IMG/VR virus record: IMGVR_UViG_3300025715_000014
Span: 1 to 64,000 of that record
DNA length: 64,000 bases
Strand: one strand, 5' to 3'
Origin: a virus
Lineage: Duplodnaviria; Caudoviricetes
In this document: one piece after another, positions 28,790 through 50,219 of the stretch
Layout: every line of letters starts with the position of its first letter
Position numbering within the stretch: position 1 is the stretch's first letter
Made by a program: the position numbers and the translations under genes
Notes under the pieces: model-generated
Told to the model about the DNA's origin: nothing
The model's input: only the letters and a program-made list of their open reading frames with translations
Database searches by the model: none

Positions 28790-30111
28790 ACTACCACTAC
28801 ACTAAAGATGTGGTGGTTTCCTTGAAAAGATTAAACTTCGCAAGAACTCCTGAAATATGAAGAGGCTCGTTCATAGAAGCAATATGATATCCAAACCATC
28901 GTTTAAGAATATTTATGGCTGAATTTAAGTCACGGTCAATAGTAATTGTGTCTGTAAGTTTAACTTGTCGGTCTTTAAGTTCAATCTTTTCTTTAAAAAC
29001 CTTCCCAGTTAAACAATTTAATTGAGTAGTCCAACTCTCATCGATTTTGGTTAAATTGATATTTTTTGATTGACATTTATAACCAAGAAATCGAAGGAAC
29101 ATATTGATATTAGATTTGTGAAATGATTTTCTAATACCTTTTTTATTTTTATTCACTCCTTCACTATTCATTAAATTTTTAACACTCAAATCACCAACTA
29201 CAATAGTATTGTAGTTCATATTCACTAATTTTTTGCTCTGAATATGTAGAGTTTGCTTTATCTGCTCGTTTTTTTTTATGGTAACATTTATTTAATGATT
29301 TCTTTAATTTTTTATTTCTTTTTGAACCTTTTGTGGTTTTACTTCTTTTGTTTTGTATGTTAGCAATACATTTTTGATAATAATCATTAATATTTTTTGA
29401 TTTATTATTCAACACAACCATCATCCCTTTATTATCAACACCAACAGCTAATTTTTCTAATCCTAAATCAATCGCCAAAACTTTTGTTTTAATTCTTAAA
29501 TCATCGACATATTTCACTGGATCTTCAACAACCAAATCACACAACCATTTATTTCTTAAATGTTTAATTCTAATTTCTTTTATATCTAATTTTGATATAT
29601 CATTTTTTGACTTATATTCAAATGGTATTTTATTGATAGTTATTATATTGTCTTTGATTATCCAGCCAGATTGATTCCAAACAATAGTATGATAATAATC
29701 ATTATCTATTTTTCTTGGTGGCCTTGCTGTTTTATCCTTCTTAATCAAATTAAAAAATGAACGATATGAACCAAACAATTCTGTTGCTATTGTTTGAACA
29801 GATTTAGCGTTTAATTTTTTCCAATTTGAATATTGTTTTTTTAATTCTGGAAGTAAATTATTTAAATCAAATTTATTTAATATTGTTTTTTTCGTTTCAT
29901 ATTCATTTTGTTCTATATCTAAAAGTTTATTCCATATATCTTTTCTTATATCAGATAACTCTTTTAATTGATTTATCTGTTCTTTCGTTGGGAACAATCT
30001 TATAGAATAACTTTTTTTCATTTATACAAGTTTGATTGTATTTAATTGAAAGAAAAAAGTCATTTTTTTCCAAATTCATCCACTAAACTAAAGATTCAAT
30101 GATTTACTTTG
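28787..30111 (-). mobile_element. IS200/IS605-family TnpB-only element
   Basis: Left end caaagtaaatc..atctttagtttagtggatgaatttg; right end gaaaccaccacatctttagtgtagtggtagttca. Confidence 0.85.
28797..30021 (-). pseudogene. tnpB: TnpB split by a frameshift in an A9 run (29269-29277)
   Basis: YSIRLFPT, LAIDLG, IDRDLNSAINI; removing one A joins the two ORFs (HKKNEQIKQTLHIQSKKLVNMNYN). Confidence 0.85.
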
Positions 30112-34769: not shown

Positions 34770-35381
34770 ATGAACATAATAAAATTCTCGGAATATATTA
34801 AAGAATCAAATGATAGAATTAAAGATTTGAACAACAATGATGGAATATTATTTGTCGTTGATGTTCAAAGCGAATTTCAAGATTTCATACCTCAAAATTT
34901 TGAAGAAAACATAATGAAATATTGTGAGGACTTCCCAATAAATGAAGATGGCGGCGGAGTTTATCAGATTTGGGATGCTAATAAAGCTCAGAATTATTCT
35001 TTCGATTTTCCGAATACAGTGCTTACAGTAAAGAAGAATTATGGATTAAATTTTGACAAAAAAATAAAGAAACTGGCTAAAAAATTGACAAAAAAATATG
35101 GAGAGATAGAAGAAGGTAAAAGATTTAAATTGAAGGATATAAATACTTACATGATCAAAGTAAATAATAACCATAAATGGTTTTATGTTAATGAAGATTT
35201 AACGGATCTTTTTGAAAAAATGGCAGGTAAAACCGTTGTAGTTGTCGGCGGAGCAGATTCTGAGTGTTTGAGTGATGTTTATGTTTCCATGAAATCTTTT
35301 GGAATAAATCCCATATATAATCACGACTATATTTATAGTGCTAAAACAAGTGATGATCAAGTGGCGGCACCAAAATCTTGA
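34770..35381 (+). CDS. Isochorismatase/cysteine hydrolase-like protein
   Basis: LFVVDVQ, VVVGGADSECL.D; leader MNIIKFSEYIKE. Confidence 0.6.
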   Translation: MNIIKFSEYIKESNDRIKDLNNNDGILFVVDVQSEFQDFIPQNFEENIMKYCEDFPINEDGGGVYQIWDANKAQNYSFDFPNTVLTVKKNYGLNFDKKIKKLAKKLTKKYGEIEEGKRFKLKDINTYMIKVNNNHKWFYVNEDLTDLFEKMAGKTVVVVGGADSECLSDVYVSMKSFGINPIYNHDYIYSAKTSDDQVAAPKS

Positions 35382-36916
35382 ACATATTTCAAATTCCCAG
35401 AATCATAAATTCTATAAATCTTTCTCTCAAGCATTATTTCATGTTCAGTCTTTAAAGGATCAAATCCCTGTTTGATTAGTTCATCTTTTCTAAAACCAAA
35501 CCTATGTTTTCTCATGCCATCAATAACATAATAATAATTGGGCTCAGTTTTTCTGATAAGTTCGAATCCAAGATTTTTATATAAATTTCCTTGGCTCCAA
35601 GACCTGTCAGCATAACTGGTCACTTCTTTTGGCTCAAAATTTTTAACAAAAAATTTGAACAGTCTTGAAGCTCCTCCAATAACATTGGTGTTCAGTTTGT
35701 TACAGAATCTCAACATCTCGTAGGTTCCATCCTCACTTTTTTGTCCCATAGATCTTCTCAGGCTTCCAAAGGTCATCAAAGAAACAAGTTCTCCCGAATA
35801 AAACAGACCAATCTTGATCCTAGATCCAACAAATCCTTGAATATGATTGTTCTCAAGAAAATCTCTAACAAGTTTATTATCAGACACTTCTTTGATTTCA
35901 CACTTCCTGGCATAAATCTTGTTTGGAGTTTTATTTAACAAGTTTAATATTCTGGACTTAACAATTTCTTGTTTATATATCCAGTCGTCCTCGTAAATAT
36001 GAATGAGTCTGATACCTTGTTTTTCTGCTAGTTCAGTTTTTTCCAAATGATAATTTAAAGAAAAATTTATTTCACTGTGCCAGTAAAGACCATTGAATTC
36101 AAATGCTAATTTTAAATCTGGTAAATAAATATCAATTTCCTTTGGATGAATTATTTTTCTATTATTTGAAACCGTATCCAAATCATAATTTTCCATAATG
36201 AAATTTTTTAACTGTGTCTCGTATCCACTGCTTGTATAAGAATTAATTGGATTGCAAATGGTGCATAAAATCGTTTTATATAAAAATCTTTTTCTTAGGA
36301 CATCAATATCTATTAAAAAATTATGCGGATCGTTGTTATCGCAGGCCATTGTGACCATGTTTTTATTTATATTTAAAATATCGAATTTTTCTAATGATTT
36401 TTTCCTAAAATCATCAGATTCTCTAAAATAATTTGCTCCATATTTTTTTTGACACGTTTCAATGGATGATTCTCTGAATTTTTTTGTTTTATAAAAACAT
36501 TCGTCCCCATATAAAAAATTCATTGTTTCTTTTCTCTTATTTTTGAATTCTTGAATTTGAGACGGATTATCTTTTCCATATCTTTCAATCATGGTTTTCT
36601 TTTTTTTGTCCAACATATTTTCAATCTCGATATTTGTTTTTGACGAATAAGATATTTTCAATTTTTTAGAACAACATTTTTGACAAGAATAAAAATTATA
36701 TCTTTTAATATTTTTAACATAATACCTATATAACAAATCCTTTTCTTCCCCACAAATATCACACTTAACTTTAATGATAGAATGACTACCATCTGTTAAA
36801 TGTTCGACCGGAACAACTATTTTATTTCCGTTTTTTAAATCATTGTATCCAAGTTTTTTAAAATGATTCATATTTGCTGAATTCAAAATTACATCAACTT
36901 CTTTGCTTAATATCAT
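35357..36916 (-). CDS. Free-standing endonuclease (Vsr/DUF559-like) with GNAT/Mom-like C-terminal domain
   Basis: CDICG Zn site, ERYG/KKYG repeats, EIDIYLP..AFEFNGLYWH, RFCN...GGASRL...SYADR..G.LY..LGF. Confidence 0.7.
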   Translation of the reverse strand: MILSKEVDVILNSANMNHFKKLGYNDLKNGNKIVVPVEHLTDGSHSIIKVKCDICGEEKDLLYRYYVKNIKRYNFYSCQKCCSKKLKISYSSKTNIEIENMLDKKKKTMIERYGKDNPSQIQEFKNKRKETMNFLYGDECFYKTKKFRESSIETCQKKYGANYFRESDDFRKKSLEKFDILNINKNMVTMACDNNDPHNFLIDIDVLRKRFLYKTILCTICNPINSYTSSGYETQLKNFIMENYDLDTVSNNRKIIHPKEIDIYLPDLKLAFEFNGLYWHSEINFSLNYHLEKTELAEKQGIRLIHIYEDDWIYKQEIVKSRILNLLNKTPNKIYARKCEIKEVSDNKLVRDFLENNHIQGFVGSRIKIGLFYSGELVSLMTFGSLRRSMGQKSEDGTYEMLRFCNKLNTNVIGGASRLFKFFVKNFEPKEVTSYADRSWSQGNLYKNLGFELIRKTEPNYYYVIDGMRKHRFGFRKDELIKQGFDPLKTEHEIMLERKIYRIYDSGNLKYVQDFGAAT

Positions 36917-39300: not shown

Positions 39301-40863
39301 ATGAAATTTGTTTTAGATGAAACAAGAACCAAACTCATTTTAAAGGAATCTACTCGCGAGGAATATAACCAACTCAAACTAAGTCTTAGCAGATATGTTA
39401 AGAATTATTTTTTCATGGTTAAATATAAAAAAACAAAATGGGATGGTAAGATAGAATTTCTAAAGAACGGTAGAGAAATAAATTTTGGATTATGGTATGA
39501 AGTATATAAAATGTGCAAAGAATATGGTTTTCCATTTGTACTTGAAAATAAAGAAATCTTCCCAAAAGATGAAAGCATAAACAGAGATGAAATATCAGAA
39601 TGGCTGAAAGATTTTTATAAAGATCATAAAGAAAAAGATGACATAACAAAACCATTCACACCATACGATCATCAAGTAGAAGGAATATATAAAATTTTGA
39701 AAAACAAATTCGGTTTAATTGAGGTGGCCACAGCAGGTGGCAAATCCTTGATATTTGGTTCTCTTGTTTTTTATTATCTTAGAAATGTAAATAAAGATGC
39801 TAAATTTTTATTGATAGTCCCCTCATTGGATCTTGTCACTCAGTTTTATAATGATATAATGGATTATAACTTGGGTTATCATCAAGAAAATAAAAATCCT
39901 GTTGATATACGAATTGATGAAATAATGAGCGATAAACCAAGAAAACATTTTGGAGGAGACCCAAATATCTATATAGGGACTTATCAAAGTTTGGTTAAAT
40001 GGCCAGATGAGTTTTTCAAACAATTTGATGTTGTTTGTTGCGACGAATCACATTTAGCCAAAGCTTTATCGCTTATAACAATAATGGAAAAAACTTTTGG
40101 AACATCAAAAATTCGTTTTGGTATGAGCGGAACTTATCCAATGGAAGGAACTGCCGAACTATTTACAATAGAAAGTTTAATGGGTCCTAAATTATTGAAT
40201 ATCAAAGCATCCAAGTTAATGGATGATGGTATCATATCCCGTTTAAAAATAAAAGCATTATTATTAAACCATAATGAAAAACAATTTGCTGAAAATATTT
40301 ATTCTATAAAAAAAGCTGGTAACGGAAAAAAAGCATATGAACTTGAAAAAGAATATTCTCAGAATTCATTACCAAGAAAAATATTTTTAGCCAAACTAGT
40401 AGCAAAATTTAAACAAAATTCTCTTCTTCTGTTTCATAATCTAGATTACGGAACAGAGCTTTACAATTATTTTAGAGATAATATACCAGGTAAAGATTTC
40501 TATTATATTGATGGTGAAACACCAAAATTAAAAAGAAACGCCATTAAAAAAGAAATGGAAAAAACAGATGGTAATGTGAAGATATTGGTGGCCAGTTTTG
40601 GAACAACTTCAACTGGTATCAATATCAAAGCAATTGTAAATTTGGTTTTCTGCGATAGCTTTAAATCAGATCGAGTTGTTAGACAATCAATTGGTCGTGT
40701 TTTGCGTTTACATGCTGATAAAGAAAAAGCCGTCATATTTGACCTCGTGGATATATTTGACTACAGCAAAAGAGGAGTTTTACACAATCACTATTTATCT
40801 AGAAAACACGAGATATATGACAAGCAATCATATCCTTATGAAGAAATGAAAATAAATCTTTAA
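39301..40863 (+). CDS. uvsW: UvsW-like SF2 DNA helicase
   Basis: WDGKI, ATAGGKSLI, DESH, GMSGT, STGINIK, QSIGRVLR. Confidence 0.9.
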   Translation: MKFVLDETRTKLILKESTREEYNQLKLSLSRYVKNYFFMVKYKKTKWDGKIEFLKNGREINFGLWYEVYKMCKEYGFPFVLENKEIFPKDESINRDEISEWLKDFYKDHKEKDDITKPFTPYDHQVEGIYKILKNKFGLIEVATAGGKSLIFGSLVFYYLRNVNKDAKFLLIVPSLDLVTQFYNDIMDYNLGYHQENKNPVDIRIDEIMSDKPRKHFGGDPNIYIGTYQSLVKWPDEFFKQFDVVCCDESHLAKALSLITIMEKTFGTSKIRFGMSGTYPMEGTAELFTIESLMGPKLLNIKASKLMDDGIISRLKIKALLLNHNEKQFAENIYSIKKAGNGKKAYELEKEYSQNSLPRKIFLAKLVAKFKQNSLLLFHNLDYGTELYNYFRDNIPGKDFYYIDGETPKLKRNAIKKEMEKTDGNVKILVASFGTTSTGINIKAIVNLVFCDSFKSDRVVRQSIGRVLRLHADKEKAVIFDLVDIFDYSKRGVLHNHYLSRKHEIYDKQSYPYEEMKINL

Positions 40864-42548
40864 ATTGGTTTCCAAATGAACTTTAAATTCCCCGAGTCAT
40901 AAATTCTATAGATTTTTCTTTCGAGCATTATTTCGTGTTCTGTCTTATTAGGATCAAATCCTTGTTTGATTAGTTCATCTTTTCTAAAACCAAATCTATG
41001 TTTTCTCATGCCGTCAATAACATAATAATAGTTGGGATCAGTTTTACTAACAAGCTTGAAACCAAGATTTTTATATAAATTTCCTTGGCTCCAAGACCTG
41101 TCAGCATAACTAGTCACTTCTTTTGGCTCGAAATTTTTAACAAAAAACATGAACAGTCTTGAAGCTCCTCCAATAACATTGGTGTTCAGTTTGTTACAGA
41201 ACCTCAACATCTCATAAGAGCCTTCTTCGCCTTTTTGACCCATTGCTTTTCTCAAGCTTCCGAAAGTCATTAAAGAAACAAGTTCTCCTGAATAAAAAAG
41301 ACCGATCTTGATTCTCGAACCAACAAAACCTTGAATATGATTTGTTTCTAGGAAATTTCTAACGAGCTTGTTATCAGACACTTCTTTCACATCACATTTC
41401 CTGGCATAGATCTTGTTTGGAGTCTTGTTTAACAAATTTAATATTCTTGATTTGACAATTTCTTGTTTGAATATCCAGTCATCTTGATATATTTGAACAA
41501 GCCGAATTCCTTGTTTTTCAGCCATTTCGGTTTTTTCCATGTGATATTTATTTGATTTGTTCAACTCGTTATGCCAATAAACCCCATTAAATTCAATTCC
41601 AATATTTAGTATTGGTATAAATATATCTATTTCTTTTGGTGATAAAATATTCCTATCTTTCAATATTATATCTCCATCAAAATTTTTTAAAACAAAATCT
41701 TTTAATTCATTCTCAGAAAAAGATGATTGATCGCCAATTGGTTTACAATTTGTGCAATAATCAATTTTATAATAATATCTTTGTATTAAATTGCTAATTG
41801 ATATGTCATAATTTTTTCCACATTTATCACAATATATTGTATATACTCCTCCATTAAAATCAATGATATTACAATCATATTTTATGGACGATTCACTCAT
41901 TTTTGAATTTTTATAATCTTGTGATTTCATATAATTTTCAACGCCATATTTTTTTAAACACGTTTTTTGATATTTATCATTATTTACATAATTTTCATCG
42001 CCGTATTTATCCAGCTTAGTTTTTTTCATCTTATTTTTTGTCGATTGAAGCGATGATGTATTTATTGTTCCATATTTATTTAATTTTGTTTTTTCAGATT
42101 TTATTTTAAAATCATCACTTCTTATATAATCTTCTTTTCCGTATTTTTCTAAACATGTCTTTTTATTTTTTTCTACATTTACATAATTTTTGTTCCCATA
42201 TTTACTGGTTTTTGTTTTAGAACTTTTATTTTTTATTTTTTCATTTTGAAAAACATTTTCGCATCCATATTTTTCAACATTTGTTATTTTTCTTTTTTCA
42301 TTCGCACATTTTTTAGAACAAGCATAAAAACCGCCTTTTTCTATATTTTGATTATATGAGTAGTATATAGTTTCTACGATATTTTCACAAACATCACACT
42401 TAACCGAAACTTTAGAATGGGATCCTTTTAATAAATCTTCTATTCTTATATCATGATAATCACCAATTTGCACATCATATCCAATATTCTTGTAGTAAGA
42501 ATATTCTTTTGGTGTAATTTTTACTTTTACATTTTTTGTTATAATCAT
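40860..42548 (-). CDS. Free-standing endonuclease, paralogue of 35357
   Basis: Same architecture with more KYG repeats; C-terminal ~210 aa nearly identical. Confidence 0.7.
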   Translation of the reverse strand: MIITKNVKVKITPKEYSYYKNIGYDVQIGDYHDIRIEDLLKGSHSKVSVKCDVCENIVETIYYSYNQNIEKGGFYACSKKCANEKRKITNVEKYGCENVFQNEKIKNKSSKTKTSKYGNKNYVNVEKNKKTCLEKYGKEDYIRSDDFKIKSEKTKLNKYGTINTSSLQSTKNKMKKTKLDKYGDENYVNNDKYQKTCLKKYGVENYMKSQDYKNSKMSESSIKYDCNIIDFNGGVYTIYCDKCGKNYDISISNLIQRYYYKIDYCTNCKPIGDQSSFSENELKDFVLKNFDGDIILKDRNILSPKEIDIFIPILNIGIEFNGVYWHNELNKSNKYHMEKTEMAEKQGIRLVQIYQDDWIFKQEIVKSRILNLLNKTPNKIYARKCDVKEVSDNKLVRNFLETNHIQGFVGSRIKIGLFYSGELVSLMTFGSLRKAMGQKGEEGSYEMLRFCNKLNTNVIGGASRLFMFFVKNFEPKEVTSYADRSWSQGNLYKNLGFKLVSKTDPNYYYVIDGMRKHRFGFRKDELIKQGFDPNKTEHEIMLERKIYRIYDSGNLKFIWKPI

Positions 42549-43618: not shown

Positions 43619-43816
43619 TTATTTCCCAAAAATATAATCATCAATAGCTTTTTGTAATTCTTTATATGTATAATTTTTTGGAAATATCTTTTCGAATTTA
43701 TCGACGACATCCACCATGAAATCATCATAAGATACTCCGATTTTAGATTTTAAACGGCTAGATATTTCATCATCTATAACCATCTTCATTTCAATTGATA
43801 ATTTAAATTTTTTCAT
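43619..43816 (-). CDS. Hypothetical protein
   Basis: 65 aa ORF coupled to the upstream gene. Confidence 0.45.
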   Translation of the reverse strand: MKKFKLSIEMKMVIDDEISSRLKSKIGVSYDDFMVDVVDKFEKIFPKNYTYKELQKAIDDYIFGK

Positions 43817-44643
43817 CTTCTTCTTTTTTTAATTTTGCTATACATATAAACCAATAATGGTATCAAAATCGTCCCAACTATAAATTCCCAGTTATCAGTT
43901 AAAAAATTGATAATTTTACTTATAATAGTTTCATCTGAATAAACATATATAATTCCATCATATACTTTAATATTTTTACTCTTATCATTTACTATCACAT
44001 CAACACTCAAAGACAGCTTGTTGTTACCTTTTGTCAGTGGTGTCACGTTCCAAGTCCATAATGTATAATCATTTTTTTCTAGAAATTGCTCTTCTTCTGT
44101 TGTTGGAATTATTCTGAAATTTACACCCGTTGGATCAACAAGTCTCGCTTTCATTATTGGTGTAATTCTAATATCACTTGTGTATATGTTATGCTCGTTA
44201 AAAGTCGATACTCCATCTATGATAACTTTTTGTTCTACTTCTTTTCCAGATATCGTCATATTAACTTCATTTGTTATACCAATCACCATAGTATCTTGAA
44301 TGACATAATTTATCTTGCCGATATTATCCACTGCATCCTGTAAAGTTTTTGTTTCATCATATTGATCATTTTGTGGATTTATTTGTATAATATCCTCGAC
44401 AACAGATGGTACTGGTGCCGGAGGTGGAGGCGGCGGAGGAGATGGAGATGTTTTTTCGCCCGTCGTTTTTGGATATTCTATTATTTTTACTATTTCCTTT
44501 TTTTCGCTTTCTTTTTGAATAACAGATATTGAATCGTTTTCCTTTATCGCTTTTGGATAATTTTTTGTATCATCCTTTGTCGCAACATATGAGCAACAAG
44601 AAAAAAGGAGCAGAAAAAATAAAAAAATGAATATTCTTTTCAC
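43813..44643 (-). CDS. Lipoprotein with polyproline linker and C-terminal TM
   Basis: LLFSCC lipobox, PSPPPPPPPAP, W.WNVTP. Confidence 0.6.
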   Translation of the reverse strand: MKRIFIFLFFLLLFSCCSYVATKDDTKNYPKAIKENDSISVIQKESEKKEIVKIIEYPKTTGEKTSPSPPPPPPPAPVPSVVEDIIQINPQNDQYDETKTLQDAVDNIGKINYVIQDTMVIGITNEVNMTISGKEVEQKVIIDGVSTFNEHNIYTSDIRITPIMKARLVDPTGVNFRIIPTTEEEQFLEKNDYTLWTWNVTPLTKGNNKLSLSVDVIVNDKSKNIKVYDGIIYVYSDETIISKIINFLTDNWEFIVGTILIPLLVYMYSKIKKRRR

Positions 44644-44813
44644 ACTCCTTATATATAAAAAATTTATTTTAATGATTTTTACGCCATTTGTCGTAAGAAT
44701 CTCCCCTTTTAAAACTTTCTATAATATATTTATTTTCAAGTTCAAATTTGGATGGAAGATCATTTAAAGCGATATACCAATTAACAAACTCATGATAAAA
44801 TAAAAAATTTTAG

Positions 44814-44884
44814 CCGGATAAGATGGAATCGAACCATCAATTTTTGTTTTAGAGACAAAAGTTATACCATTTAACTATTATCCG
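44814..44884 (-). tRNA. Amber suppressor tRNA, anticodon CUA (amino acid probably Gln, inferred)
   Basis: Cloverleaf: acceptor CGGATAA/TTATCCG, D stem GTTA/TAAC, anticodon stem TTTGT/ACAAA with loop CT-CTA-AA, T arm GATGG-TTCGATT-CCATC, discriminator G; CCA not encoded. Confidence 0.9.
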
Positions 44885-44891
44885 ATTTTAA

Positions 44892-44917
44892 AGTGTGCTA
44901 GTTTTATCTAGCACACT
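44892..44917. other. Hairpin immediately 5' of the tRNA (processing or attenuation site?)
   Basis: agtgtgctag-ttttat-ctagcacact. Confidence 0.55.
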
Positions 44918-44927
44918 CCATAGTTGT

Positions 44928-45353
44928 TTATTTAATTTTATAGAAGTCGCCTTTTTCATTTTTATATTCAGCCAAAACCTGCTCATATAAAGTACGCAAA
45001 GCTAACATCTTTTTTCTAGATTTTTGTATGTTTTCTTCTTTTTCAGATACTTTAACATAAATTTTTTCTACACCTGTTATTTTAGATAATAAATGAAAGA
45101 AATAATTGACTTTTCGTAATGTTAATTTTTTATCTAAGGCAAAGATACACTTATTTATTTTCTTATCTTGATTTTTAGATGTTCCATATAAATTTTTGAC
45201 TTCGATTCTATAAATCGGTTTATTTATTCTATAGTTATTTTCTTTTATCCAATTTTCAATTTTTTCCATTGTTTCATTTACTCTGTTGGATAATTCTGAA
45301 CTGTTATAAACATAGTTCATTATTTTTGGTTTTTCTAATGTCATTGTTTCCAT
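44928..45353 (-). CDS. Basic hypothetical protein between pth and the suppressor tRNA
   Basis: 141 aa ORF; C-terminal helix SEKEENIQ..RK...YK.EKGDFYK. Confidence 0.7.
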   Translation of the reverse strand: METMTLEKPKIMNYVYNSSELSNRVNETMEKIENWIKENNYRINKPIYRIEVKNLYGTSKNQDKKINKCIFALDKKLTLRKVNYFFHLLSKITGVEKIYVKVSEKEENIQKSRKKMLALRTLYEQVLAEYKNEKGDFYKIK

Positions 45354-45448
45354 AATTTTTTGAATTTTTTTTAAATTATTTTTTTATTGAAATTTAATAA
45401 TTATTCAGGCACTGCCTGAATTTTTTTCCTATTATAGACACAATTTCA

Positions 45449-45472
45449 TTAAGGCGGCTTTAACTACGACAT
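45449..45472 (-). other. SD-led mini-ORF ATG TCG TAG TTA AAG CCG CCT TAA (putative leader peptide)
   Basis: AAGGAGGAG immediately upstream; amber at codon 3; Pro-Pro-stop ending; hairpin attcaggca/tgcctgaat downstream. Confidence 0.55.
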
Positions 45473-45825
45473 ATCTCCTCCTTTCTTTCATTTTCTTTTA
45501 ACATTAAAGGCAAAGAACTAGTAAGCTTTCTGGTTTTTTCAGAAGGCTCTATACACACAGAAGTTATCTGATCATTGAGATCAGGCTCCTTGAATATAGA
45601 ATGTTTTAAATTGAATTTTTTTAATTTTGAGATGAGTTCTATTAACTCTTTTTCTCCAGGCACAGATAAATAAATCAAATATTTTGATTCATTTAACCAT
45701 TTTTTAGAAATATCTGGATATTGATGTTGAAATTCTACTGCGGAGTGTCCAGCTTGAACGGCTTGCTGACCAGCTTTTATGTCGGAACGTGTGACCACAA
45801 CCAATTTTTCTACAATCTACTTCAT
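45460..45825 (-). CDS. Peptidyl-tRNA hydrolase, Pth2-like, with in-frame TAG at codon 3
   Basis: ATG AAG TAG ATT GTA GAA AAA TTG GTT; VV.R.D...GQQAVQAGH, F.EPDL..QIT motifs; AATATATA-gttat-ATG context. Confidence 0.8.
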
Positions 45826-45830
45826 ATAAC

Positions 45831-45838
45831 TATATATT
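45831..45838 (-). promoter_or_regulatory. Phage late-type promoter motif AATATATA (representative copy)
   Basis: (A/T)ATATATA recurs shortly upstream of many starts on both strands, e.g. before 4380, 7453, 19673, 30197, 32676, 38719, 48682, 51921, 58961, 59951, 61284 (+) and 19607, 27256, 37874, 45825, 50528, 54197 (-). Confidence 0.7.
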
Positions 45839-45943
45839 GAAATTTATTTGTTTTGTTTATACAAAAGTATAAAGTTTTTTAAATAAAAAAAAAATAATTT
45901 AAAAATTTTATATATAGAATAAAAAAAAATAATAATATAAAAA

Positions 45944-46120
45944 ATGAATAAAATTAAAACTTGGTTGAAAAAATTGTTCTTCGGTGAAACTTATAAAAAA
46001 GAAATTAGTCGCAGCGCTGTCACAGGAGAATTTGTCTCCAAAGAATTTGTAGAAGAAAACCCTGGAACAACAACAACAGAAATCAGAGAAGTTAAAAAAA
46101 GAGGTAAGGCTAAGTCGTAG
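45944..46120 (+). CDS. Small protein with RSAxTGxFV...PxTT motif (58 aa)
   Basis: MNKIKTWL...RSAVTGEFVSKEFVEENPGTTTTE; below the ORF-track cutoff. Confidence 0.55.
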   Translation: MNKIKTWLKKLFFGETYKKEISRSAVTGEFVSKEFVEENPGTTTTEIREVKKRGKAKS

Positions 46121-48574: not shown

Positions 48575-49882
48575 CAAAGAAAACTACGACATCTTTAGTG
48601 TCGTAGATGAATTTGACACAATTTTACAAAAAAATTAGAAAAATGTAAAAAAATGACTTTTTTAATTTAATATATAGTTATATGAAAACTATATTTAAAT
48701 CATTTAAGTTTAGAATATACCCAAATGAAGAACAAAAAATCTTGTTGGCTAAGCATTTTGGTGCTTGTAGATTTGTTTTCAATCACTACTTAAACAAAAG
48801 AAAAGAAACTTATCTTGAAGATAAAAAATCATTAAATTACTATGATAATGCTAATGATTTAACTCAATTAAAAAAGGATGATGATTTTAACTGGTTGAAA
48901 GAAATTAATAGCCAATCACTTCAATCTTCTTTGAGAAATCTCGATAATTCATATAATAGATTTTTTAGAAAACAATCGAAGTTTCCAAGATTTAAATCAA
49001 AATACGATAGACAATCATTTAAAATACCACAATCTATATTAGTTGAAGATAATCAATTAATAATACCAAAGTTTAAAAAGGGTGTTAAAATTAATTTACA
49101 TAGAGAAATAGAAGGAAAAATACAATTTGCTACCATATCTAAATCAACATCAGGAAATTATTATGTTTCTTTAACTTGTGAAGTTCAGTATCAACCTTAT
49201 GAAAAAACCAATTCAAAGGTGGGTATAGATACAGGTATCAAAGATTTGGCTATATTAAGTGATGGGACTACATATAAAAACATTAAAACATTAAAAAATA
49301 ATTTAAAGAAATTAAAATATAATCAAAGACAACTATCTAAAAAAGTAAAAGGTGGTTCATCGAGAGATAAACAAAGAAAAAAACTTGCTGTTTTACACGA
49401 AAAAATAACTAATATTAGGACAGATTATTTACATAAAGTATCGACTGAAATTGTTAAAAACCACGACATCATTTCAGTTGAAGATTTAGCAGTAAAGAAT
49501 ATAATGAAAAATCATAATTTAGCACAAACAATGTCTGATGTTAGTTTAGGAACATTCTATTCCATGTTAGAATATAAATGTGAGTGGAATGAAAAACAAT
49601 TTGTTAAAATAGATAGATTTTTTCCTTCAAGTAAAACTTGTTCTAAATGTGGTTGGATAAATCAAGATTTAACATTAGATGTTAGAGAATGGGAATGTTC
49701 TTCGTGTGGAGAAAAACATAACAGAGATTTTAACGCAAGTAAAAATATTTTAAAACAAGGTTTAAAAATATTGTCTGGTTTAGGGACTAATTCGGACATT
49801 AAACAAAAACAAGTGGAGTCGTTTTCGTTAGAAAAGGCTATGAAACTTGAAACTACGACATCTTCAGTGTCGTAGTAGTTCA
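48575..49882 (+). mobile_element. IS200/IS605-family (IS1341-type) TnpB-only element
   Basis: Subterminal hairpins ctacgaca-tctt(t/c)ag-tgtcgtag at both ends; ends in tagttca. Confidence 0.9.
48682..49875 (+). CDS. tnpB: RNA-guided endonuclease TnpB, intact
   Basis: FKFRIYP HTH, GIDTG, VEDL, PSSKTCSKCG..CSSCG, RDFNASKNI. Confidence 0.95.
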   Translation: MKTIFKSFKFRIYPNEEQKILLAKHFGACRFVFNHYLNKRKETYLEDKKSLNYYDNANDLTQLKKDDDFNWLKEINSQSLQSSLRNLDNSYNRFFRKQSKFPRFKSKYDRQSFKIPQSILVEDNQLIIPKFKKGVKINLHREIEGKIQFATISKSTSGNYYVSLTCEVQYQPYEKTNSKVGIDTGIKDLAILSDGTTYKNIKTLKNNLKKLKYNQRQLSKKVKGGSSRDKQRKKLAVLHEKITNIRTDYLHKVSTEIVKNHDIISVEDLAVKNIMKNHNLAQTMSDVSLGTFYSMLEYKCEWNEKQFVKIDRFFPSSKTCSKCGWINQDLTLDVREWECSSCGEKHNRDFNASKNILKQGLKILSGLGTNSDIKQKQVESFSLEKAMKLETTTSSVS

Positions 49883-49934
49883 TCATACCCATGTTCATTA
49901 TTTTTAAATCTATATATAAATATTTGAAATTATA

Positions 49935-50219
49935 TTAAACTATCAAATCATTCTTTAAATTAAAAACATTTTTTTGAATGTATTCGGCCATATCTTCGTC
50001 ATCAAGATGATCTATCAATCCTTTATCATATAGATAAAAATGTATTCTGTTATTTATGTATTTTAGCAGCTCTATATTTTCATTTCTATTTAGATGTTCT
50101 ATTATTTCATTTTTCAACTCTATTGGAGCCACTCTAAGTTTTTTCTTAAATGGAACAACAGGGACATCTCTTACAATGAATTCTTTATCACCTAATGATA
50201 TAGTGTGGTATTTGCTCAT
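49935..50219 (-). CDS. Hypothetical protein
   Basis: 94 aa ORF. Confidence 0.5.
   Translation of the reverse strand: MSKYHTISLGDKEFIVRDVPVVPFKKKLRVAPIELKNEIIEHLNRNENIELLKYINNRIHFYLYDKGLIDHLDDEDMAEYIQKNVFNLKNDLIV

Follow-up and report, generated by a model that had tools for sequence, protein, structure and literature searches.

A conserved leader mini-ORF with an internal amber codon as a candidate sensor of suppressor tRNA activity in huge phages

Gene order around the amber-containing mini-ORF

The window analysed here is a stretch of 64,000 nucleotides (64 kb) that forms the start of a single contig of 118,399 bp (IMG/VR record IMGVR_UViG_3300025715_000014), which has a G+C content of about 28% and is a piece of a huge phage. 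On its minus strand, a mini open reading frame (mini-ORF) with an amber codon as its third codon lies between a gene for a PTH2-type peptidyl-tRNA hydrolase and a gene for a protein of 141 residues, which is followed by the gene of an amber suppressor tRNA (Table 1). The original prediction, made from this DNA alone, described the mini-ORF together with a strong Shine-Dalgarno (SD) sequence ahead of it, its overlap with the 3' end of the hydrolase gene, a hairpin, the 141-aa gene and the tRNA, and proposed a leader peptide whose readthrough and stalling would control the downstream gene and the tRNA in a feedback loop. Each of these features was recovered at its expected minus-strand position, as was a second occurrence of the ATG-NNN-TAG layout at the start of the hydrolase gene (ATG AAG TAG, 45825-45817).

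Phage genes on the contig include those for a tail fibre, PhoH, an endolysin, a helicase, TnpB, and HNH endonucleases. The helicase is 67.9% identical to that of the uncultured 735-kb phage LR756501, and genomes larger than 634 kb have been described as the Mahaphage clade with predicted Bacteroidetes hosts (PMC7162821). Crude gene calls end with TAA in 94 cases, TGA in 42, and TAG in 12, and internal TAG codons are absent from long ORFs, which together indicate that this part of the phage uses the standard code.

The SD-like sequence of the mini-ORF doubles as Lys-Glu-Glu codons of the unconserved PTH2 tail, and the stop codon of PTH2 (TAA, 45462-45460) falls within the mini-ORF in a different frame. 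The original prediction had remarked that strong SD sites appear rare in the window, and the counts over the 118-kb contig bear this out: GGAGG is found within positions -18 to -1 of none of the 148 crude gene calls, making the SD of the mini-ORF exceptional, while the contig has 15 copies of AGGAGG, most of them within genes. The bare ATG-NNN-TAG motif was observed 76 times on both strands of the contig, compared with 79 expected from base composition, and the leader is the only one of these 76 sites with an SD-like 4-mer upstream. The full design, with an early TAG and a Pro-Pro-stop ending within 25 codons, occurs once in the contig on both strands. Taken in isolation, ATG-NNN-TAG is therefore at chance level, and the decisive evidence is comparative.

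Table 1. Coordinates of the mini-ORF, its predicted RNA structures and the surrounding genes in the 64-kb window.
Feature	Position	Strand	Remarks
Amber suppressor tRNA, anticodon CTA	44813..44884	-	Rfam tRNA 68.7 bits; only tRNA of the window
141-aa gene, family A	44928..45353	-	helical protein ending ..EKGDFYK; 28-48% identity to 11 relatives
Long-range helix, 3' strand	45336..45356	-	-3 to +18 relative to the 141-aa gene, spanning its start codon; minimum free energy (MFE) fold
Local 8-bp hairpin ATTCAGGCA-G-TGCCTGAAT	45403..45421	-	unique in the window; inside the loop enclosed by the long-range helix
Long-range helix, 5' strand	45431..45451	-	leader stop codon and next 21 nt; MFE fold
Leader mini-ORF	45449..45472	-	ATG TCG TAG TTA AAG CCG CCT TAA; M-S-amber-L-K-P-P-stop
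Leader parts	ATG 45472-45470; TAG 45466-45464; CCG CCT 45457-45452; TAA 45451-45449	-	
Shine-Dalgarno-like AAGGAGG	45477..45483	-	4 nt (AGAT) ahead of the leader ATG
PTH2-type peptidyl-tRNA hydrolase	45460..45825	-	frame begins ATG AAG TAG ATT; alternative TTG start 45804
TnpB-like / HNH genes	28797-30021 (-), 48682-49875 (+), 35357-36916 and 40860-42548 (-)		

The 141-aa gene starts 95 nt after the leader (52-155 nt in relatives), and the suppressor tRNA begins 43 nt past its end. This short spacer leaves little room for a promoter and suggests that the tRNA gene is co-transcribed with the 141-aa gene, which is probably the case judging from the gene arrangement. Within the spacer (44927-44885, minus strand), a 9-bp hairpin (GTGTGCTAG..CTAGCACAC) ends 8 nt before the tRNA; it has no match in Rfam and may be a processing or termination signal. 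Searches with the 141-aa protein gave no fold assignment in the ESM Atlas (scores of 0.83 or lower), nothing in a Foldseek comparison with the PDB at E up to 1e-3, a generic four-helix bundle as the best hit of VIA wide (Z 6.1), and a best E of 0.042 in a profile search of the PDB. The AF2 model of this protein family, hereafter family A, has a mean predicted local distance difference test (pLDDT) value of 83.1.

Conservation of the leader beyond its internal stop codon

Starting from a PTH2 alignment, we retrieved 312 relatives in IMG/VR and kept the best 80, corresponding to 69 distinct loci. Scans of viral contigs with the 141-aa protein or PTH2 as single queries yielded no confirmed relatives, and a blastn search of GenBank phages returned one short match. 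The mini-ORF was defined as an ATG followed within 7 codons by a TAG and then by Pro-Pro-stop, with a total length of up to 25 codons. In the 69 loci this pattern was matched 37 times on the PTH2 strand, in 32 loci, and never on the opposite strand, while the same pattern with an internal TAA or TGA was absent from either strand. A TAG is present in 37 of the 41 short ORFs ending in Pro-Pro-stop on the PTH2 strand, and none of the four that lack it resembles a version of the leader with a Gln codon. About 22 further loci carry amber mini-ORFs ending in RGPT, RGP, RAPT, or RSP. The alignment of upstream regions that the original prediction had proposed, in search of a conserved ATG NNN TAG followed by two Pro codons and a stop, thus finds a Pro-Pro leader in 32 of the 69 PTH2 loci and variant endings in some 22 others. 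Writing q for the TAG, examples are MSqIKPP, MSqVKPP, MFqIKPP, MNqIKAPP, MEHqIIRPP, and MKqIIRAPP, compared with MSqLKPP in the window.

A second ascertainment through the family-A protein gave 41 distinct loci out of 48, with some contigs shared with the PTH2 set. An amber leader lies at most 260 nt upstream of the gene in 33 of these 41 loci and ends in PP-stop in 24 of the 33; the apparently leaderless ones are mostly variants or truncations (L102, L118, L119, L136). Conversely, a search with only the leader pattern gave two new loci, and in both (2/2) a family-A gene follows closely. A mini-ORF with an internal TGA in L111 was rejected as a chance match, since it lies inside a tRNA array.

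In the subfamily to which the window belongs, AAAGGAG(G) precedes the leader ATG by 4-6 nt, including in loci where the leader is intergenic, while no SD precedes the leaders of subfamilies B and C. The original prediction had allowed that the SD-like run might be explained solely by the Lys-Glu-Glu codons of Pth. Its retention in intergenic leaders indicates that the SD is not merely a by-product of these codons and that the codons exist because of the SD. Several relatives have a similar SD at the 3' end of PTH2 that serves a different overlapping gene.

The endings of the 32 distinct leaders are dominated by KPP (13), RPP (10), and APP (6). At the codon level they are variable: the first Pro is encoded by CCG in 13 leaders, CCA in 11, CCT in 5, and CCC in 3, and the preceding Lys or Arg by six kinds of codon (AAG, AAA, AGA, CGA, CGC, AGG). 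The CCNCCN-stop is in frame with the TAG in 33 of 33 cases, a frame that is preset by the criteria used to select the mini-ORFs. This synonymous variation points to selection at the amino acid level on the peptide encoded after the TAG, and such a variation combined with an in-frame ending makes sense only if ribosomes read through the TAG. The base following the leader TAG is A in 27 leaders, G in 4, and T in 1, and a purine 3' of a TAG favours suppression. Leader length is 7 residues in the window and 6-14 in the relatives.

The codon just before the stop encodes Pro in the window, in every one of the 32 PP leaders, and in the RGP and RSP variants, and exact RAPP endings are found in some relatives (MMqIIRAPP, MKqIIRAPP), next to RGPT, RGP, and RAPT elsewhere. 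RAPP and RGPP are described as robust arrest cores that block peptide-bond formation and are refractory to elongation factor P (PMC12992588; PMC10951233). By sequence resemblance, the leader endings would fall in the class of such RAPP-like arrest cores. We also considered an anti-SD mimic as a constraint on these codons, since CCNCCUUAA is similar to the 3' end of the 16S rRNA and might base-pair with the SD. Three observations led us to reject it as the chief constraint: the first Pro codon varies freely at its third position (G 13, A 11, T 5, C 3), an SD is missing from the leaders of subfamilies B and C, and the RGP(T) variants are unlike CCNCCUUAA.

One locus, L092, exchanges the internal stop codon. 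Found through family A, with its features at 1350-2038, it has the leader ATG ACG TAA GTA AAT AAA CCA CCG TAG, with the same box after its stop codon. Its family-A gene ends in TAG, and 59 nt later comes a tRNA with the anticodon TTA, the only one in 138 loci in which 116 CTA tRNAs were counted; likewise, L092 has the only Pro-Pro leader with an internal TAA among L090-L137. The co-occurrence of a TAA leader with a TTA tRNA indicates that the sensor codon follows the anticodon of the neighbouring suppressor, and this match appears to be the strongest single argument for the internal stop being read by the neighbouring tRNA. The phage at L092 may suppress or reassign UAA. Together, the exclusivity of TAG in 37 of 41 ORFs, the in-frame conservation past it, and the ochre pair at L092 support the original proposal of a readthrough-dependent leader.

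An early amber codon is also a feature of the adjacent hydrolase gene. The assignment of PTH2 is supported by a match to Pfam PF01981 (E 8.7e-11; 42.5 bits, cutoff 23) and by profile matches to solved archaeal Pth2 structures (PDB 2zv3, 5.3e-8; 1rzw, 1.3e-7). Among 67 distinct phage PTH2 relatives, 64 begin with an in-frame M-x(0-5)-amber start, with the amber at codon 3 in 40, codon 4 in 16, and codon 5 in 7, and the base after this TAG is A or G in 63 of the 64. Amber-started PTH2 genes also occur in the 735-kb phage LR756501 and in the cultured Tenacibaculum phage pT24. In the contig, no amber-started gene other than PTH2 was found. The 'Q' at residue 3 of the database homologues P0003, P0005, P0006, and P0007 is probably a TAG read under code 15. 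Through its own early amber, PTH2 appears to be gated by suppression more directly than the 141-aa gene. In pT24 (L081, LC168164; 2939-3075), ATG AAA TAG ATA is in frame with the PTH2 domain and an annotated tRNA-Sup lies 2.6 kb upstream; the start of the GenBank CDS BPT24_235 is placed at an internal ATG and is thus probably an annotation error. Both the family-A gene and the amber/Pro-Pro leader are absent from pT24. In many relatives (L016, L027, L028, L037, L049, L059 and others), the PTH2 stop is associated with GGAAAGGAGGT 7-8 nt ahead of an overlapping ATG (ATGnnTAA), which is the start codon of a conserved small protein (MLN..IPMWVIKAKG.TYYV.H) whose translation is coupled to that of the amber-gated PTH2.

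Each leader precedes a small gene beginning with MET.. or MKT.., and three unrelated protein families occupy this downstream place: A (137-180 aa), B (105-126 aa), and C (122-139 aa). Families B and C have no obvious similarity to A, and none of the three matched Pfam or PHROGs. In 64 of the 80 loci, a tRNA(CTA) on the same strand is found no more than 3 kb from PTH2. It follows the controlled gene by 25-270 nt in 18 of the 32 loci with a leader, namely in 8 of 12 with family A, 10 of 10 with family B, and 0 of 10 with family C; in most of the 10 family-C loci the tRNA is instead found just upstream of PTH2. A leaderless arrangement is seen in the 636-kb phage LR756504 (L138, 84-520), where a family-A gene begins 8 nt after the stop of an amber-started PTH2, with no tRNA in the next ~500 nt. 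This layout could be another route to the same dependence on suppression.

Predicted pairing between the leader end and the downstream start region

The MFE fold of the interval 45335-45490 has an energy of -27.4 kcal/mol (z -3.44), and none of 200 shuffled sequences was equally stable. Its main element is an interrupted 18-bp helix between the leader end and the start region of the 141-aa gene. The helix sequences differ among subfamilies, and each complements its own partner: the mean duplex energy is -10.9 kcal/mol for own partners, compared with -7.8 kcal/mol for non-own partners within a family and -5.7 kcal/mol across families. In a first run on 33 loci, the mean for own partners was -10.6 kcal/mol, a value as low as this was reached in none of 10,000 permutations, and shuffled sequences averaged -4.4 kcal/mol.

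The position of the pairing was addressed with a sliding 25-nt window over the leader region (113-214 such windows per locus). The best partner of the start region begins between -14 and +6 of the leader stop in 28 of the 32 loci and in 17 of 21 further family-A loci, so that the leader end pairs with the downstream start region in 45 of 53 loci overall. In the subfamily of the window, an 11-bp core is paired in 96.9% of cells (93/96) versus 38-57% with a slid partner. No base pairs were predicted by RNAalifold when 10 leaders aligned with MAFFT were used as input, which is attributed to misalignment of the variable loop; the duplex, position, and named-structure tests were used instead. An Rfam scan of 44700-46000 (E up to 1) matched the tRNA and nothing over the leader, and also gave a sub-threshold plastid match on the opposite strand of the tRNA. 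The conserved helix joining the leader end to the downstream start region agrees with the original proposal that the leader controls the downstream gene.

Leader geometry was compared with the position of the helix. The distance from TAG to stop is 4-9 codons and never less than 4, and the TAG of the window sits 12 nt short of the helix. A ribosome covers about 11 nt past the first base of its A site. With this footprint, a ribosome at the TAG would miss the helix, while one at the stop codon would cover its 5' strand. Constraint folding of the 32 loci gave a mean unpaired probability of the start region of 0.51 for the free RNA and 0.51 with a ribosome at the TAG, rising to 0.67 with the ribosome at the second Pro codon and 0.71 at the stop. 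The difference between TAG and stop is significant in a Wilcoxon test (p 1.4e-7, n=32), with the sequences being mutually related. In the window, the corresponding values are 0.57, 0.57, 0.58, and 0.67. The conservation of the leader, its specificity for TAG, the selection on its peptide, the helix, and the correspondence of sensor codon and suppressor anticodon are all computational results.

Three further elements of the interval were noted. The local hairpin at 45403..45421 was rejected as an intrinsic terminator because the scan flags it in the plus-strand orientation only, and relatives have unrelated hairpins at the same place, by eye mostly without U-tracts. A TATAAT -10 box after the leader stop was also set aside: it is confined to the window subfamily, and the differing sequences of the other subfamilies still complement their own start regions. 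In subfamilies B and C (L004, L010, L039, L052, L054, L070, L071), the interval between leader and gene contains 2-4 direct copies of (T)GGACA or TAGACA, followed by an inverted copy that forms a hairpin; these repeats might bind a protein or provide an alternative pairing.

Other features of the contig lie outside this module. Two TnpB-like genes (phrog_506), one intact and one split, are accompanied by a pair of paralogous HNH homing-endonuclease genes (phrog_3339) on either side of the helicase gene, and the TnpB ORF 48649-49938 ends in a TAG TAG doublet. At 43813-44643, on the minus strand, a lipoprotein-like gene has a GTG start, a signal peptide ending in ..LFSCC, and a run of nine prolines; its start codon indicates that the phage uses non-ATG starts. 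Beyond the 64-kb window, at contig positions 108464-108547, ARAGORN reports a tRNA-like gene to which no type is assigned, with a four-base anticodon call (gaag).

Possible functions of the leader and comparison with known systems

On balance, we consider it likely that the mini-ORF is an arrest-peptide leader that acts as a sensor of suppressor-tRNA activity and exposes the start codon of the next gene. Without suppression, ribosomes would start at the strong SD and ATG and be released at the TAG of codon 3, leaving the helix closed and the start codon of the 141-aa gene hidden. When tRNA-Sup(CTA) decodes the TAG, translation would proceed through four more codons to Lys-Pro-Pro-stop, where the RAPP-like ending could slow peptide-bond formation or release. 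A ribosome parked at this position would occupy the 5' strand of the helix, thereby freeing the downstream start and allowing translation of the 141-aa gene, which in turn could protect transcription of the tRNA from polarity and close a positive loop. The steps that we infer in this scheme are the stalling itself, the direction in which regulation acts, and the connection with the tRNA.

Several observations weigh against this arrest-leader model. Regarding the peptide, 7 residues are far fewer than in the arrest peptides studied so far, and the window ends in K-P-P rather than R-A/G-P-P. The base after its TAG is a T, which makes it unique among the 32 leaders, although this base is imposed by the overlapping PTH2 stop. 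The suppressor tRNA has a similarity of 0.50-0.68 to all other isotypes, so that the inserted residue is not indicated. In family C the tRNA does not follow the controlled gene, so a feedback on the tRNA would not be general. As for the helix, the best pairing lies away from the leader end in 4 of the 32 and 4 of the 21 loci, the helix is lacking in L046, L072, L103, and L108, and by eye the leader of LR756501 has no box after its stop. No double compensatory changes were found within the window subfamily, as the 3' strand is the invariant start region; the covariation hence rests on a comparison between subfamilies of AU-rich sequences, in which chance pairing already reaches -4.4 to -5.7 kcal/mol. 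The helix of subfamily C is weak (-7.7 kcal/mol), and the modelled opening is modest in the window (0.57 to 0.67).

Among the alternatives, the best surviving one, which we nevertheless regard as unlikely, keeps the same amber sensor but gives it a tna-like transcriptional output: the stalled ribosome would block Rho loading or shift the choice between terminator and antiterminator, and the polymerase would continue into the 141-aa and tRNA-Sup genes. A tRNA is not controllable at the level of translation, yet it closely follows the controlled gene in 18 of the 32 loci, and an A/U-rich tract comes after the hairpin of the window. TnaC, too, stalls at a stop codon with peptidyl-tRNA(Pro). A synthetic transcriptional switch with an amber codon in its leader works in this manner (PMC6412442). 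However, the conserved partner of the leader end is the downstream start region and not a terminator, the window hairpin is flagged as a terminator only in the plus orientation while its counterparts in relatives mostly lack U-tracts, and subfamily C has no tRNA after the controlled gene.

Less probable still is a coupling that needs no arrest, in which the helix simply places the leader stop beside the AUG so that readthrough ribosomes reinitiate there, Pro-Pro being incidental or a matter of fine-tuning. Although in several loci, such as L113, L116, and L135, the AUG is paired directly with the final Pro codon and the leader stop, and the leaderless LR756504 with its 8-nt gap after PTH2 has a plain coupling layout, the 52-155 nt separating leader stop and downstream start speak against reinitiation, as does the strong retention of K/R-(A/G/S)-P-(P/T) endings whose codons vary synonymously.

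We give little credence to a two-codon M-S-stop minigene resembling lambda bar, with its dropped-off peptidyl-tRNA acting as a PTH2-linked substrate or sink. The toxicity of bar minigenes occurs in Pth-deficient cells, and the strong SD, the two sense codons, and the neighbouring peptidyl-tRNA hydrolase gene would suit such a role. However, a bar-type minigene of two or three codons would not be under selection beyond its stop, and this reading fails to explain the in-frame conservation past the TAG; the exclusivity of TAG, the helix, and the TAA/TTA pair of L092 are equally left out of account, and in subfamilies B and C the leaders are not preceded by an SD. Chance, with the SD-like run as plain Lys-Glu-Glu codons of the PTH2 tail and a random ATG-NNN-TAG, is in our view practically negligible, since the composition-level frequency of ATG-NNN-TAG and the mostly intragenic copies of AGGAGG are opposed by the pattern counts of 37 versus 0 versus 0, the 33 of 41 loci ascertained through family A, the SD conservation in intergenic leaders, the helix, and the swap at L092, and the 43-61% identity of the relatives' PTH2 excludes assembly copies of one sequence.

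Returning to the arrest leader, a tentative extension of this model, to which we attach distinctly less confidence, is that the leader, the amber-started PTH2, and tRNA-Sup constitute a self-reinforcing genetic-code switch. A trickle of suppressor would allow translation of the 141-aa gene, which would lessen termination and yield more suppressor, while PTH2 and the small protein, both produced under suppression only, would adapt the translation apparatus. If this were true, it would represent the first sensor of stop-codon suppression found in nature, a control circuit deciding when the phage reads a stop codon as sense, and L092 would show its re-targeting from UAG to UAA.

Phages with suppressor tRNAs or switched codes are common, and how the switch is controlled in them is a stated open question (PMC10879173). 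The leader offers a concrete candidate control point, since its sole informative codon is a stop that would be read by the neighbouring tRNA. It belongs to a conserved four-part module (tRNA-Sup, amber-started PTH2, amber leader, and small protein) in huge phages related to the 735-kb genome, and the module also flags mis-annotated starts, as in Tenacibaculum phage pT24. No description of an amber leader or an amber-started PTH2 was found in full-text searches largely outside the subscription journals, or in look-ups of terms in relevant papers.

Among known systems, the RAPP-like peptides ApdA, ApdP, and ApcA, and SecM (RAGP), have a C-terminal core of the Arg/Lys-(Ala/Gly)-Pro-Pro type, which the leader endings resemble, exactly so in some relatives and as L-K-P-P in the window; as in these systems, the gene that the leader would regulate lies directly downstream. 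Arrest of the RAPP type is considered to make the initiation region of the next gene accessible (PMC10951233; PMC12992588). Unlike these peptides, the phage leader lacks both a segment for secretion or membrane insertion and a force-release logic; its input would be the decoding of an internal stop, and many members have their stop directly after Pro. TnaC is a short leader whose ribosome stalls with peptidyl-tRNA(Pro) at a stop codon and so controls downstream genes. It senses free tryptophan and acts through Rho-dependent termination, whereas the phage leader would sense suppressor-tRNA activity and has the downstream start region as the conserved partner of its putative stall site. In ermC and cat, RNA pairing masks the start of the next gene and a ribosome stalled on the leader ORF opens this pairing. 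The same trait of translational attenuators is predicted here, where the pairing hides the downstream start region and overlaps the footprint of the leader ribosome; the erm/cat inducer is a ribosome-bound antibiotic, while the stall site of the phage leader would be gated by an in-frame amber codon.

The input itself has an engineered precedent in the switch of Liu et al. (2011), in which a TAG is placed in a leader and downstream expression needs its suppression (PMC6412442). That switch is synthetic, transcriptional (tna/trp based), and driven by an orthogonal tRNA/synthetase pair, whereas the phage element, as its natural counterpart, appears to be translational. An early in-frame stop that gauges termination against alternative decoding is also known from prfB. 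There, a +1 frameshift at UGA within its own gene senses release factor, unlike the phage leader, which is separate from the gene that it would control and would sense a suppressor tRNA. Finally, the 'code change module' of recoded phages comprises a suppressor tRNA, a synthetase, and a release factor upstream of lysis genes (bioRxiv 10.1101/2021.08.26.457843). As in that module, the suppressor tRNA described here is clustered with translation genes and suppression could serve as an expression timer; the words hydrolase, Pth and leader do not occur in the text of that preprint, and the present module differs in combining tRNA-Sup with a small protein, an amber leader, and an amber-started PTH2, in a contig whose other genes use the standard code. 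By analogy, the logic of the leader appears to be shared with erm/cat attenuators, SecM/RAPP monitors, and engineered TAG leaders, while its suppressor-tRNA input would be new.

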